Virus record (IMG/VR): IMGVR_UViG_3300022697_000076
Location: 1-49,270 of that record
Source of the DNA: a virus
Taxonomy: Duplodnaviria > Caudoviricetes
Length of the DNA stretch: 49,270 nucleotides
Strand: one strand, 5' to 3'
This document shows, in pieces, positions 3,848 through 28,335 of the stretch (positions are counted from its first letter, which is position 1; each line of letters opens with the position of its first letter). The position numbers were made by a program, and so were the translations under genes. Below the pieces are notes generated by a model, which made no database searches, had not been told where the DNA came from, and saw only the letters and a program-made list of their open reading frames with translations.

Positions 3848-5038
3848 ATGGCAAAGCGGGTACAAAGGGTAGGGCATGAAACTGCAGCTGCTAATGCATT
3901 TACAGGTTTAGAGCGGGAGATTACAGTTGATTTAGGTAAAAAGTCTGTACGTGTTCATGATGGTTTGACACCCGGAGGTGTTATTGTAGCTAGAGAGGAT
4001 TTGTCTACAAGTCCTGCAGCTATAGGTGGCACTAATGATGGCAAAATGACAGCTGCACAAGCTACTGAACTTGCAAATGCAACTGCAAAAGATGCAGTGC
4101 AAGATGCTAATATAGCTACAAATGTTACTGGCATAGCAACTAATGTTACTAATATAGCAACTAATACAGGCAATATAGCTACAAATACAACTAATATAGC
4201 TACAAATACGTCTGGAATATCTACTAATACGGGTAACATTGCAACTAATACTAGTGGTATAGCTACAAATGTTGTTAACATTGCAACTAATACAGCTAAT
4301 ATATTAACTAATACTAGTGGTATTTCTACTAATACTGGTAATATAGTAACTAATACTAATTCTATAGCCACTTTAACTAATGGCATAATAACTGCTATAC
4401 CTTTAACAGCAGGAACTGCACTTGCATACACTGCTGTTTTAGGGATAAATAGTTATGTAACTGGAACTGTTTATAAAGTTAGGATACATGCTACTAATAC
4501 AGGGCCTGCATTTATATCTTTAGATGGACTTCCATCAACACAGATTAGATTTGCAAGACTTTCAGGTGAACACACTTTAATTGCAGGTGAATTACCAGTG
4601 AACTCTATAGCAGAGCTTTTGTACTTAGGAGGGTTTTTTTATTTACAAAATGTTGCAGAGGTTACAGGCACTTATACAGCAGTTCTAACTACTGGAGCTG
4701 GGAGTATAACTTTAGGTAATGATCAATTAGACTATAGAGTAAAGGAATCTCTATGTACTATATTAGGTAGAATAACGGTATCTGCTATATCTGCTCCTAG
4801 CGGGGTTTTAAATATTAATACCCCTATACTTAAACTTGGTGCAGCTAATGATAGTACATCACAAATTATGCATCAATCTTTAGGTACAGCTACAGCTTTA
4901 GGTCTTGTGATGAGAGATGTAGGTATTAGTACAATAGAGATAGCAGAACTTACAACTACATCTATTAATCTGTCGATAGCTAATTTTTTAATCGTGAATT
5001 CAGCACTTACCTTTTCTCATACTTATAGGATTAGATAG
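3848..5038 (+). CDS. Tail fibre with Mtd_N-like anchor, coiled-coil heptads and C-terminal head
   Basis: N-terminus FTGLEREITVDLGKKSVRVHDGLTPGG resembles the Bordetella phage BPP-1 Mtd N-terminal domain; followed by NIATNT heptads. Confidence 0.8.
   Translation: MAKRVQRVGHETAAANAFTGLEREITVDLGKKSVRVHDGLTPGGVIVAREDLSTSPAAIGGTNDGKMTAAQATELANATAKDAVQDANIATNVTGIATNVTNIATNTGNIATNTTNIATNTSGISTNTGNIATNTSGIATNVVNIATNTANILTNTSGISTNTGNIVTNTNSIATLTNGIITAIPLTAGTALAYTAVLGINSYVTGTVYKVRIHATNTGPAFISLDGLPSTQIRFARLSGEHTLIAGELPVNSIAELLYLGGFFYLQNVAEVTGTYTAVLTTGAGSITLGNDQLDYRVKESLCTILGRITVSAISAPSGVLNINTPILKLGAANDSTSQIMHQSLGTATALGLVMRDVGISTIEIAELTTTSINLSIANFLIVNSALTFSHTYRIR
4109..4381 (+). repeat. 13 degenerate 21-bp repeats encoding (N/G)IATNTx heptads
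   Basis: NIATNVT GIATNVT NIATNTG ... SIATLTN visible in translation. Confidence 0.9.
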
Positions 5039-6625: not shown

Positions 6626-8761
6626 ATGGCAAGACATACAGACAAAGGTACAGAAAGATCACTGGATATATTTACAGCTGCACAGCCAAAATTAAGCTCA
6701 AACGTTGTGCAAACTGCTGAAAGTAATCAGCTAGACGCAAATATGTTTGTTGAATTTACACAAAAAAGGGATGGCTTGCAGAAGTCAATAGAAGCCTCAG
6801 AAACCTCTTATGGTAGAATGTCGTCTGACTTATTAGATCAAAATGATAATCTACAAGGAGAAATTAATAAAGCTTTTAATAATCCATTTTATGATTTAAT
6901 GGCTGCATTTAGTGACGACCGTAGTACTGATGAGTTGCTTCAAGAGCAGCGTAGATTAGCTATGCAGTTATCAAGAGTAAATACACAAAATATAAAAGCT
7001 ACTGCAACTATACAAAGTGATATTGATCGTGAAAGTCAAAAGTTTCAAGACCAAATAGGTTTATCTAAGCTACTGGAAGAAGGTGCAGATAAGCAAGTTA
7101 CTGCTTTAGAAAATGTAACTAAGTTAGAAGAGGCTGCAACTGCATTTGAAATTAGTAAGCTAGAAAGAAAATCTGTTAATATGTTGCAGTTAGAATTGCA
7201 AGACTCTAATTCAATATTTAGCCCAGGTTTAACTCGTAGTGTACTTAATGCAAAAATTAATGATAATCTACTAACACAGACTGCACAATTAAAACTAAAA
7301 TTTGGTAGTGTTACAAAAGCTCAAGTGCTTGGCAGTATATCAAAAGACCAAATGGTTGAAATAGTAAAGAATATGAAAAATTTAGGTGTAACATCCCAGC
7401 CGTTTAATGGAGTAATTATACCTATAGGAGATTTTACAAAAGCTATTGCAGTAAAACAAAAAGATTTTGAGCGCGATATTAATATATTTAATACACTTAG
7501 TAGTGATGCTTTAGCCTCAATAGATTTGCAGCCTGATGCTCAAGCATTTGCAGATACAATTGATTCAAAGAGTTTAAGTTTAGAGTCTCAAGTCCAAATG
7601 CAAGCTGCTGCTGTAACTATAGAGTTCAATCAAAAAATACAAAGACGTAATGCAGATATCCTCGCAAATGGAGGCGAATTATCAGATAGGGATAAATTAA
7701 TGATGATTCGTTCAGGTAAACAAGCCGCTGAGTTATTAAGTGTAACTAAAGATAGAGCGGCTACTGAAAAAGCAAATGCAATTAGTAGCAATCCAGATAC
7801 ACAAAAGGCGCTCAAAAACTATTATATGGCAAATGGCAGGTTTAATAGTGCTAGAGAAGCTCAAACTGTAGGAATAGAGCTTTTAGCGACAAGTACTCCT
7901 GAAGCTGTAGGCTCTCAGGCAGGAGGAGTATTTCAACAAACTGTAACTGAGTTTGCTACACTCATGCAAGATAGGATTGATAGCAATTTTGATAATAATT
8001 TTAATCCTGATAAGCCATCAACAAGTAAAACAGGTACTAAATTAAACGTAAATATAGAAGATTTTTTTAAAGGTCAGCCAGCGAATAAAAAATTAAGCTC
8101 TGTAGAGTGGCTAAGGGCGCTACGTGAACCCGCCGTAGATAAAGAAGGTAAACCTATATTGCCGGGTACAGGTCTGGAAACAAACAAATGGAAATCTGGA
8201 TTTGTTAATTCAGCTTTTGCATTACAGATAGACCAAGGGATATCAGAGTTTATAACATCAGATGCAATTAAGTTACAGCCAAAAATAATAGACTTACTTA
8301 CAACAAGTGGTGGCAGATTAAAAGATAAATATTTAAATTCAAGTGATACACTTAAGTCTATTATATCAGACCTTGCAACTCTTAATGCTACTGATATAGT
8401 AGATGAGAAAGTTAATGGAGAAACAGACTATGCTGCAATGTTTATACAAACTATGAAATCCGCCTCTATAATGAATATTGGTGTTAATGCATTTACTAGA
8501 AGTAAAGACCCATTTTTAAATTCAATGTTTAGAAATTTATATGGCGATAGGGATTTAAGTACAATTGCTGGGGGGTATTTAAAGAAGTATGAAAACAAAT
8601 TAAGCTCTATATCAACTAAAGAGTTAGTTAACAATAAGGTACTTAAATTGATTGATACTTCAGAGCAAAATTCAGGTTTATCTTCTCTAGTTCCAGAAAA
8701 AGTAGGACAGTTCTTTAATAATGAAGTTGATATACTTGGACGTACATTAAATATAGAATAA
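6626..8761 (+). CDS. Putative internal virion (ejection) protein
   Basis: 711 aa, helical/coiled-coil character, precedes the largest gene. Confidence 0.55.
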   Translation: MARHTDKGTERSLDIFTAAQPKLSSNVVQTAESNQLDANMFVEFTQKRDGLQKSIEASETSYGRMSSDLLDQNDNLQGEINKAFNNPFYDLMAAFSDDRSTDELLQEQRRLAMQLSRVNTQNIKATATIQSDIDRESQKFQDQIGLSKLLEEGADKQVTALENVTKLEEAATAFEISKLERKSVNMLQLELQDSNSIFSPGLTRSVLNAKINDNLLTQTAQLKLKFGSVTKAQVLGSISKDQMVEIVKNMKNLGVTSQPFNGVIIPIGDFTKAIAVKQKDFERDINIFNTLSSDALASIDLQPDAQAFADTIDSKSLSLESQVQMQAAAVTIEFNQKIQRRNADILANGGELSDRDKLMMIRSGKQAAELLSVTKDRAATEKANAISSNPDTQKALKNYYMANGRFNSAREAQTVGIELLATSTPEAVGSQAGGVFQQTVTEFATLMQDRIDSNFDNNFNPDKPSTSKTGTKLNVNIEDFFKGQPANKKLSSVEWLRALREPAVDKEGKPILPGTGLETNKWKSGFVNSAFALQIDQGISEFITSDAIKLQPKIIDLLTTSGGRLKDKYLNSSDTLKSIISDLATLNATDIVDEKVNGETDYAAMFIQTMKSASIMNIGVNAFTRSKDPFLNSMFRNLYGDRDLSTIAGGYLKKYENKLSSISTKELVNNKVLKLIDTSEQNSGLSSLVPEKVGQFFNNEVDILGRTLNIE

Positions 8762-20470: not shown

Positions 20471-21082
20471 TTAAAATGGTATAGATACTATTTCTATTTG
20501 ATTTACCAGTTCAAGATATGAATACATTGCATCATCAATTGCTCTGTGTTTAACTAGTGAATCAGCTTCTTTATTTTGCAACTTACTGTAATCTGGATGA
20601 AATTGCATAAACATGTTAATATCACTTGTATCAAATCTATCACGGAACGTAAAAGGGTAGTGCAAGTCAGCATATTCATACATACGAATAAGTATATCAA
20701 CATCAAAATCAGTATGATTGGCTACAATTAAACTATTATGTATATCGTAGCTTGCAAACATAAAATTATTTACCTGTCTCATAGTAGTTGCTATTGGCAA
20801 TGTTTGTTTCATACATCGATATAGATAGTCTTTAAATAGTGCTTCACGTTCTGAGCTTGACCACCATTCAACTGTATTATCATTACCTTTATATTCTGCA
20901 TATGCATTCATAAGGTTAAACTGCTCTGATAAGTTGAATATAAACTCTCGCTTACCAAAAATTCTGCCCTCTGTATTTCCTATTACAATACCTAATGCCA
21001 TTACAGGGCAAGATTCTGTATTAACTCCTAGCGTTTCCCAATCAATTACAATTAAGGTTTTATCTTTCATATCATTCTCCAT
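20471..21082 (-). CDS. DEDDh 3'-5' exonuclease (Rv2179c/DUF5051-like)
   Basis: IDWETLG, TVEWW, NHTDFDVDIL, HRAIDDA motifs. Confidence 0.85.
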   Translation of the reverse strand: MENDMKDKTLIVIDWETLGVNTESCPVMALGIVIGNTEGRIFGKREFIFNLSEQFNLMNAYAEYKGNDNTVEWWSSSEREALFKDYLYRCMKQTLPIATTMRQVNNFMFASYDIHNSLIVANHTDFDVDILIRMYEYADLHYPFTFRDRFDTSDINMFMQFHPDYSKLQNKEADSLVKHRAIDDAMYSYLELVNQIEIVSIPF

Positions 21083-21091
21083 ATTATTAAA

Positions 21092-21180
21092 TGGTGGACT
21101 TGGAAGGAGTCGAACCTTCTGTGGAGATCAGGCCACTACCTTCAAGGAAGGCACGTATCGTCCGGAATTGCATCAAGCCC
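21092..21180 (-). tRNA. Non-canonical tRNA-like gene (89 nt, encoded CCA; Ala-type acceptor, nominal anticodon CUU)
   Basis: Acceptor GGGCUUG/CAAGUCC-A-CCA; T arm GAAGG-UUCGACU-CCUUC; anticodon stem UGCCU/AGGUA; variable stem GUGG/CCAC; GG in D loop. Confidence 0.8.
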
Positions 21181-21188
21181 TTATACCC

Positions 21189-21221
21189 AAAAAGGGAACT
21201 ACAATTTAACTCGTAGTTCCC
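21189..21221 (-). terminator. Rho-independent terminator after the SSB-like gene
   Basis: GGGAACTAC/GTAGTTCCC stem followed by T5 on the - strand. Confidence 0.75.
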
Positions 21222-21248: not shown

Positions 21249-21755
21249 TTATGCAATCATAGCTTCATATGCTTCCTGCAACATAATACCTTTAATATCC
21301 ATATTTACATATGGCTTATCTGGATCATCCTTATTACGCGCATGAGCTATTTTTGCAACATACTTCATGCCTGTAGCTCTATCCATACCTTCTGATAGTT
21401 TACTAACACCAGTAATGCCTATTTTTTCTAAAAAGCCTTTAACCTGACCAATGTCTTTTACAATGTCTTTAATAAAAATACTTTCATTGTGTTTAGTACC
21501 AATCATTGTATTTTCATCAAATTCATCACTTTTAACTGCATAGCATTTTTCACATTCATTTTCAATTTGAACAACTGTATGCTCACCAAATGATTTAAAC
21601 TCCATACTTAATACTTTCCATAATGCAACTGATGGAGGTGTTGTAGAAAATCCACCATATGATATTTCAACATCTGATATATCAACATCTGCAAGTTCAG
21701 CTAATGATATCTCTACTTCTACACCACCGTTTAATATTTTAACTTCATCTGACAT
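21249..21755 (-). CDS. Putative single-stranded DNA-binding protein
   Basis: 168 aa, acidic, beta-rich, directly downstream of the Sak4-like ATPase. Confidence 0.55.
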   Translation of the reverse strand: MSDEVKILNGGVEVEISLAELADVDISDVEISYGGFSTTPPSVALWKVLSMEFKSFGEHTVVQIENECEKCYAVKSDEFDENTMIGTKHNESIFIKDIVKDIGQVKGFLEKIGITGVSKLSEGMDRATGMKYVAKIAHARNKDDPDKPYVNMDIKGIMLQEAYEAMIA

Positions 21756-27576: not shown

Positions 27577-28335
27577 TTAAATTCTCCATCTATACTTCAA
27601 CCCAACAAATTCAACTGCACTTTTGCTAAAACTTGGCATTGCAACTAAGTTAAGTTCATGTGTTTTAGTTATCTTCCAAGTAACATTTGGCATTACCAAA
27701 AACTGTATTGCATTGAGATTCTTAGGATGGCTGTGGGAGCTATCGCGTATCTTATACTTTGACCCATCTTCGTCGTGTTCTTCGCCGTGCTGCTCTCTCT
27801 CGCTGCTGCTTTTTTGTTCATTTGGTAATCTCGATTGCATTGGCTTACTTTTGCTTTCAATATCATCATAACCTGTTACAAAGCCAAATGCAACCCCCCA
27901 ATTCCAACCATACATTTCATGCTTTAAATTAGCTAATGCGTATAAGCTCTGTTTATTGTAGCTGTTTTCATAGAATCCACCCTCTAATTCTAAATGGCGA
28001 TTTATATTTTTAAGATAACCAAGACCCCAATTTTTTGTATTGTAGTTATATGTAGTATCTGTATGTATTGAGGTTAAGTTAACTACAATTGCATCCTTTT
28101 GTGTAGCGGCTTGTGCTAGTTGTGGTGTTAGTAAAAGTGTTAATCCAGATGCAAATAATGCGCCTAATAATATTGATTTAAAATCCCATTTGTGTTCTTG
28201 TTTTTTATCATTTAAAGGTAATTGATTTAATAAGTCTATACTTAATCCACGTAGTTTAATTCTTAATTCTGTATCTCTACAGTTATCAGCATAAAAAGAT
28301 ATTCTTTCTTGAGTTTGTTGTAATGTTAATGGCAT
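27577..28335 (-). CDS. PagP-like outer-membrane beta-barrel protein
   Basis: Internal signal-like segment ending AQA; SIH, NTKNWGLGY, GFYENSYNK, GFVTGY; terminal amphipathic strand VGLKYRWRI. Confidence 0.65.
   Translation of the reverse strand: MPLTLQQTQERISFYADNCRDTELRIKLRGLSIDLLNQLPLNDKKQEHKWDFKSILLGALFASGLTLLLTPQLAQAATQKDAIVVNLTSIHTDTTYNYNTKNWGLGYLKNINRHLELEGGFYENSYNKQSLYALANLKHEMYGWNWGVAFGFVTGYDDIESKSKPMQSRLPNEQKSSSEREQHGEEHDEDGSKYKIRDSSHSHPKNLNAIQFLVMPNVTWKITKTHELNLVAMPSFSKSAVEFVGLKYRWRI

Follow-up and report, generated by a model that had tools for sequence, protein, structure and literature searches.

The window, i.e., the whole stretch of DNA analysed here (49,270 bases), is a complete virus record with a terminal overlap of 99 bases and a GC content of approx. 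34%, and it encodes a terminase, a portal, a major head protein, a family A polymerase, a primase, and a helicase. A tRNA-like RNA lies on the minus strand within the replication cluster, where it follows an AAA_24 protein, a 168-aa gene, and a terminator-like hairpin and precedes a PF16473 exonuclease, two short genes, and the polymerase (Table 1). The 168-aa gene is without any family match. A search for terminator-like hairpins found one (shuffle mean, 0.6), and no promoter-like site was found on the minus strand between 20300 and 22000. The first base of a GGAG motif (21080-21077) lies 11 nt past the CCA of the RNA, and the exonuclease likely starts at 21070. None of the 20 largest repeat families listed covers the element, NCBIfam gave no match for the antisense 91-aa ORF, and a role as attP was ruled out by the presence of both acceptor strands and the lack of an integrase family match among the 60 proteins scanned. 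Elsewhere in the window, a 396-aa gene (3848-5038) contains a tandem repeat of 21 bases (7 residues) at 4090-4398 (+), and a 252-aa gene at 27577-28335 (-) matches phrog_3600, labelled lipid A acylation protein PagP, with no match in Pfam or NCBIfam.

Table 1. Parts of the tRNA-like RNA and its neighbours, in window coordinates.
Feature	Position	Strand	Description	Basis
Upstream 168-aa gene	21249..21755	-	putatively SSB-like	position only
Intrinsic-terminator-like hairpin with T run	21189..21221	-	ends 8 nt before RNA +1	
Whole tRNA-like gene	21092..21180	-	89 nt, CCA encoded	
Acceptor 5' strand	21174..21180	-	G1 G2 G3 ... G7	pair probabilities 0.99-1.0
D region	21154..21173	-	20 nt; A8 U9 ... 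U14 U15; G18 G19 at 21163-21162	no stable stem
'Anticodon' hairpin	21137..21153	-	7 bp; CUU triloop at 21146-21144	folding z -4.39
Variable hairpin and A48	21120..21136	-	4 bp, 8-nt loop	folding z -1.19, weak
T arm	21103..21119	-	5 bp, canonical loop	folding
Acceptor 3' strand	21092..21102	-	U70 (21098), A73 (21095), CCA	sequence and folding
Downstream 3'-5' exonuclease (PF16473)	20471..21082	-		family match

The tRNA-like element is real, and its top half is beyond chance: a top half with alanine marks and CCA occurred in none of 300 dinucleotide-shuffled genomes, and a top half of any kind in two. The GC content of the RNA (53.9% vs. 34.4% for the genome) is reached by none of the 553 non-overlapping 89-nt segments. 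The acceptor stem of 7 bp, the T stem of 5 bp, the T-loop consensus, and the CCA end are all those of a canonical tRNA, with acceptor and T pairs at probabilities of 0.97-1.0 in folding. An earlier sequence-only reading had described G1:C72, G2:C71, G3:U70, A73, and CCA, together with G18G19 and an intact T arm, and these are indeed what the sequence holds; the T arm is perfect. G3:U70, G2-C71, and A73 are the alanyl-tRNA synthetase (AlaRS) marks listed in PMC9976931, in which the G3:U70 pair combined with A73 stands as the chief determinant for AlaRS; this determinant works in minihelices too (PMC5389508). The minor alanine determinants G4-C69 and G20 are missing, their places being taken by C4-G69, found in 8/34 phage tRNA-Ala calls, and A20. 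The T stem is shared with 4/20 phage tRNA-Lys calls vs. 4/336 others.

The middle of the molecule is far less regular. Although the letters at 21092-21180 (-) are as the sequence-only reading gave them, it had left unstated the problems of the D stem, of position 37, and of the anticodon register. In folding, no pairs form in the D region, which has C11xA24 and A13xA22 mismatches, and its best match (10/13 anchored positions) is to the phage A8/U14-type D arm, a value reached by 57 of 3000 shuffles; a Leu-type D arm was rejected owing to a negative profile score. In folding, the stable form is the proposed 7-bp stem capped by a CUU triloop, its loop being closed by C33-G37 and U32-A38 and its stem also containing U31-A39. 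The CUU anticodon preceded by C33 stands as far as the letters are concerned, and position 37 holds G in place of A37. The register is ambiguous, as the alignment from one covariance model reads the loop as CU-UGA-AG. A Ser(UGA) register was considered and rejected, since it restores a canonical loop at the cost of breaking the stem. The class II-like variable stem is present, though weak, and the 3' part of this hairpin can alternatively pair with positions 18-27 in a one-helix, TLD-like fold (-26.3 vs. -27.2 kcal/mol for the cloverleaf-like fold, a gap of 0.9 kcal/mol). The loop of this fold is 10 nt long, a linker of 3 nt leads to the T arm, and the outer pairs make up approx. 25% of the ensemble; the folding z of the whole molecule is only -1.31.

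The RNA departs from tRNA at the D stem, U8, A14, R15:Y48, and U33, and all five departures together are found in 2/363 other phage tRNA calls, a set from fetched loci that is enriched for odd tRNA clusters; a base other than U8 occurs in 61 of these calls (61/363) and A8 in 31/363. The A8/U14 and U15/A48 letters were correctly read, and their pairing had been taken as a sign of selection. This holds in part: U15 and A48 co-occur in phage tRNAs (6/25 vs. 15/307), whereas A8:U14 is not specific (7/20 vs. 5/21 with other non-U8 bases). No other phage tRNA call with both A8:U14 and U15:A48 was found, and A8-U9 could just as well mark where a mini-tmRNA-type loop begins. The 'swapped' bases have precedents: A8/U14 D arms, as well as long variable arms, are found among phage tRNA-Lys genes, and in mini-tmRNA-like phage RNAs an acceptor of this type is followed by A8-U9. 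Two 6-mers are common to the 'anticodon' hairpin and the T arm, as is the case in 3/363 other calls, and the hairpin may have originated by local copying.

Scoring with tRNA models, suggested at the outset as a check, gave a divided result, in which ARAGORN calls the RNA and the Rfam tRNA and tmRNA models do not. The ARAGORN call, tRNA-Lys(ctt), is the sole tRNA call in the genome; it is lost at 101% of the threshold, and when the top half is fixed and the middle shuffled, the same full-length call recurs in 21/3000 cases, so that the middle resembles a tRNA more than chance would have it but passes only narrowly. For this RNA the 'tRNA-Lys' label misleads. RF00005 (29-bit cut-off) gave no match at E<=10 in 301 nt or at E<=1 in the window, and RF00023 (tmRNA) gave none at E<=10. 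The tRNA-Sec model (RF01852) scored 20 bits (E 0.13), below its 47-bit cut-off, and the UCA anticodon is lacking. A long-arm Lys/Asn model and a Ser/Leu/Tyr model gave 32.8 bits each; on these models, TLD-like RNAs reach 31.8 and 30.0 bits, real long-arm tRNAs reach 45-91, and a held-out tRNA-Lys (L108) scores 59.7 on the Lys/Asn model. Neither alignment preserves the anticodon stem called by ARAGORN. Membership in the phage long-arm tRNA-Lys/Asn group was rejected, as the score is far below that of members and near that of TLD-like RNAs. Two further comparisons were set aside: the better score of the body against long-arm Lys than against Ser/Leu/Tyr tRNAs (p 0.004) is circular, the set having been fetched by likeness to the top match, and the TLD-like model score (38.8 vs. 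27.6-31.3 for four tRNA-Ala) comes from a training set obtained mostly with a pattern built on the RNA itself. The likeness of the variable arm to long-arm tRNA-Lys is not significant (567/2000 shuffles), and the ancestry tests of the parts of the RNA were chosen after the data had been seen.

A viral search pattern combining the acceptor, A8-U9, and the T loop gave 16 matches without a homologue. All 16 have 7/7 acceptor pairs (partly forced by the pattern), 15/16 have a full T stem, and in these short alanine-type RNAs ARAGORN calls a tRNA at that place in 0/16, which indicates that non-decoding alanine-type RNAs recur in phages. A8 was found in 0/43 ARAGORN tRNA-Ala top halves vs. 5/9 of the uncalled ones in which the pattern left position 8 free. 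Message-less alanine-type RNAs of 70-100 nt were observed at loci L140-L155, L158, L159, L175, L020, L046, L063, L124, and L128; the contig of L158 is titled as a Bathyarchaeia MAG, and the subfamily L152-L154, L159 has no RF00023 match in the member tested. Two tRNA-Ala(UGC)-like RNAs (L051:1501-1584 and L121:301-384) combine A8 with a tetraloop D hairpin and a long, A-rich variable region, and ARAGORN calls neither.

The RNA resembles the TLD-only, CDS-less tmRNA of Mycobacterium phage DS6A and mini-tmRNA-like phage RNAs akin to it (L143, L140, and L149) in its alanine acceptor marks, A8, and intact T arm and in the absence of a D stem and a message part, with a one-helix fold as an alternative within the above 0.9 kcal/mol; its acceptor is identical to that of the mini-tmRNA-like L143/L148. 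Unlike mini-tmRNAs, it carries GG at tRNA positions 18-19 rather than near the acceptor, lacks a GAC/CAC/AAC-type linker and an RF00023 match, and has two hairpins in the lowest-energy fold. RF00023 is matched by 6/8 TLD-like phage RNAs tested (E 1e-25 to 1e-11), with 2/8 failing, and a D-loop GG near the acceptor is present in 18/18 TLD-like RNAs; the RNA has the stemless D loop without this GG. Because this GG and an RF00023 match are both absent, binding of SmpB is doubtful. A molecule similar to the TLD-only form of phage DS6A is reported to inhibit tmRNA, perhaps by titrating SmpB (PMC4131195), and the TLD-only form is reported to do so in E. coli (PMC11915505).

With allo-tRNAs (Mukai et al., PMC5389517), the RNA shares a long variable arm, G3:U70, and an anticodon mismatched to the acceptor identity, but it differs from them in its 7/5 acceptor/T branch (not 8/4 or 9/3), A73, closed loop, and lack of a long D stem with a tetraloop; the same paper also describes inactive forms with stem-destabilising changes. 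The CUU triplet and the long variable region recall long-arm phage tRNA-Lys (Serratia phage BF, Xanthomonas phage BUDD, and LR745206), the A8/U14/G21 letters recall tRNA-Lys with A8/U14 D arms (Curtobacterium phage Yappy, BUDD, and L058), and the T stem is that of several phage tRNA-Lys variants. In these named variants, however, the D stem is paired, U33 and A37 are retained, and G3:U70 does not occur. G3:U70 and a Lys anticodon are also found in the C70U missense suppressor of E. coli tRNA-Lys (Prather, Murgola and Mims 1984, via PMC5389508), which is, however, a single change in a normal tRNA-Lys, whereas the RNA has no normal core and loop. The RNA would work in the manner of a TLD-only or allo-tRNA-type alanine mimic, but each of the TLD-only, allo-tRNA, and canonical tRNA-Lys families has tested defining features that it lacks. 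Its head is of the phage mini-tmRNA-like kind; its body has tRNA dimensions and a weak likeness to phage tRNA-Lys, and descent from tRNA-Lys should be taken as a hint rather than a finding. Searches of the open-licence PubMed Central/bioRxiv literature showed no natural phage RNA that combines a 7/5 branch, alanine marks, and a CUU hairpin with a closed loop.

Several other phage tRNAs came to light. L108:301-387 (-) is a tRNA-Lys(UUU) with A8-U9, a long variable arm, a canonical loop, G3:U70/A73, and a C4xU69 mismatch, and it is a better candidate than the window RNA for a natural Lys-to-Ala misacylated tRNA. L058:1501-1585 (+) is a tRNA-Tyr(GUA) with G3:U70, A73, and A8-U9, possibly of dual Tyr/Ala identity, and three Lys tRNAs of three different designs lie at the L058 locus. 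At L204:2891-3240 (+), LR745206, there are four tandem tRNA-Lys calls, three of which have long variable arms.

The search for homologues, also proposed by the sequence-only reading, was carried out in viral, GTDB, phage, and plasmid scans and yielded none, and thus nothing for covariation; these searches relied on exact patterns or blastn, by which diverged copies can be missed. A near-exact 3'-half pattern gave 0 matches in the viral scan, a viral pattern scan over 36/64 parts gave 120 loci without a homologue, a swapped-D-arm viral pattern gave 20 matches (0 with both stems), a GTDB pattern scan gave 21 matches without a homologue, and annotated phages and plasmids contained no homologue. 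A search of nine complete related records for a T loop together with a YYCA end gave 1 match, without a tRNA fold, and single-protein locus searches with the exonuclease and the AAA protein gave nothing. Protein alignments led to 14 viral and 5 metagenome related loci; 4/5 metagenome loci were examined, and 2 of these 4 end before the slot. Among the viral loci (26-45% AAA identity), 1/14 has a tRNA, namely L008, a distant relative in which a canonical tRNA-Leu(UAA) occupies the same slot directly behind the SSB-like gene. L135 (63% AAA identity) and L137 (48%) have the same order of upstream gene, terminator, and exonuclease, and their slots contain no tRNA-like RNA, only a terminator-like hairpin; the exonuclease is therefore independent of the RNA. 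The RNA is lineage-specific. The closest relative by protein shows 73% AAA and 71% upstream-gene identity, tblastn with the AAA and upstream proteins found no match among annotated phages, and polymerase identity is only 20-25% among the best 25 of 113 matching records. Elsewhere in L135, at 8317-8436 (+), lies another tRNA-like gene with a paired acceptor, a Leu-like D arm, and CCA, in which a long insert replaces the anticodon and variable arms (RF00005, 33.9 bits); it is missed by ARAGORN.

The sequence-only reading had included a Lys-to-Ala missense tRNA among its proposals, and recoding of this kind is contradicted both by the loop and by the genes of the phage. A tRNA-Lys(CUU) has an open 7-nt loop with U33 and A37, whereas the RNA has C33 and G37. 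Of 119 tRNAs with U36, 114 have A37, 0 have G37, and 114 have U33; C33 with G37 is found in 1/411 phage tRNA calls, and U32-A38 in addition in 0/411. The LysRS marks U35, U36, and A73 are present as letters, but U35 and U36 lie within the triloop and in an ambiguous register. The t6A enzyme requires U36-A37-A38 (PMC13276492), and position 37 normally holds the loop open (PMC7954030). In the phage's own genes, AAG is aligned to K at 42/71 sites and to A at 3, similar to AAA (K at 84/147 sites), and the AAG share of Lys codons (241/821, 29%) equals the GAG share of Glu codons (207/718). Since AAG aligns to Lys in homologues and is not avoided, wholesale AAG recoding is excluded. These counts leave room for low-level misreading, in which an RNA alanylated via G3:U70 would read AAG and place Ala at some Lys codons; four arms of class II dimensions, G18G19 in place, phage long-arm tRNA-Lys genes (CUU included), the C70U missense suppressors of E. 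coli tRNA-Lys cited in PMC5389508, and natural G3:U70 allo-tRNAs that put Ala into proteins in E. coli (PMC5389517) all argue for it, but with C33, G37, a stable triloop, and no D stem it is very unlikely. A chimera is more improbable still, in which a mini-tmRNA-like alanine head would sit on a long-arm tRNA-Lys(CUU) body and the alanylated RNA, its hairpin open, would read AAG as Ala at a low level.

Part of the evidence suits an RNA without any function of its own. It might be the decaying remnant of a tRNA gene captured by the phage, probably one for a long-arm tRNA-Lys in which a single transition turned G3-C70 into G3:U70, as would fit the absence of the RNA from both same-order relatives, the canonical tRNA-Leu(UAA) in the same slot of the distant L008, the two D-stem mismatches, the marginal ARAGORN call, the D-arm likeness (57/3000 shuffles), the enrichment of the T stem in Lys calls, and the existence of two phage Lys tRNAs with G1G2G3/C70C71C72 and A73. 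We nevertheless regard such a relic as unlikely: 12/12 top-half pairs are in place together with an undamaged T loop, G18G19, and CCA, the altered loop bases complement each other (C33-G37 and U32-A38), the acceptor has C4-G69 as in Ala/TLD types rather than the U4-A69 of the two Lys genes, and the long-arm Lys/Asn model is no better than the Ser/Leu/Tyr model (32.8 bits each; 59.7 for the held-out L108). tRNA-processing enzymes recognise the top half, and this is the conserved part of the RNA. The T run of the terminator-like hairpin ends 8 nt ahead of the RNA, and 11 nt separate its CCA from the probable ribosome-binding site. The RNA could be a processing signal, cut by RNase P and 3' nucleases to set the 5' end and the stability of the exonuclease-polymerase message; given that G3:U70 and A73 are unneeded for this and that L135 and L137 have the same downstream gene without the RNA, this is quite improbable. 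Still less credit can be given to a decoy for tRNA-Lys anticodon nucleases (PrrC, PARIS AriB), which the sequence-only reading had named among its examples and which is poorly supported. CUU does lie at the tip of a 17-nt hairpin, and phage tRNAs counter such nucleases (PMC11464382, PMC10264068), but the known targets are tRNA-Lys(UUU), and the published counter-defence is replacement of the cut tRNA, which requires decoding. Moreover, AriB reads U36-A-A-U-C40, U39A abolishing and U16C impairing cleavage (PMC12409363), and the RNA has G37, A39, G40, and C16, of which A39 and C16 are the changes reported to block and to impair AriB, respectively. PrrC favours a stem that is destabilised in part, and it depends on modifications of the anticodon (PMC2275089).

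A likely alanylatable tRNA mimic, as already proposed, is the best reading, judging by the identity elements. More specifically, we place about even confidence in a non-decoding, likely alanylatable mimic that would compete for host tRNA/tmRNA factors. The RNA would be cut from a read-through transcript by RNase P and 3' nucleases and then probably charged with alanine by AlaRS; charging is likely because the G3:U70 pair, together with A73, is as a rule enough for AlaRS to act, minihelices included. Owing to the closed loop, the charged RNA is predicted not to pair with codons, and it may instead compete for AlaRS, EF-Tu, and possibly SmpB. The top half is free of defects and the departures are confined to the middle, which speaks for such a mimic, although any method of detection will by itself pick out RNAs whose top half is intact. 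Against it, the RNA is a singleton, both same-order relatives are without it, G4-C69, G20, the near-acceptor GG, and an RF00023 match are missing, and a terminator-like site immediately precedes it, the search for promoter-like sites having given none.

Of the many tRNA-like RNAs of alanine type that phages carry, only the DS6A form was met in the open-licence PubMed Central/bioRxiv literature. As a singleton, the window RNA is of moderate weight: real, odd, and single, it appears to be a variant of known alanine-type mimics. Full tRNA dimensions with a closed anticodon loop are an unusual combination, which would allow alanine charging, SmpB binding, and decoding to be told apart cleanly as reasons for keeping such RNAs. 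Were the RNA to misread AAG, the laboratory missense suppressor would have its counterpart in nature, and if the chimera were to prove true, the phage would encode a mistranslating tRNA directed against host proteins.
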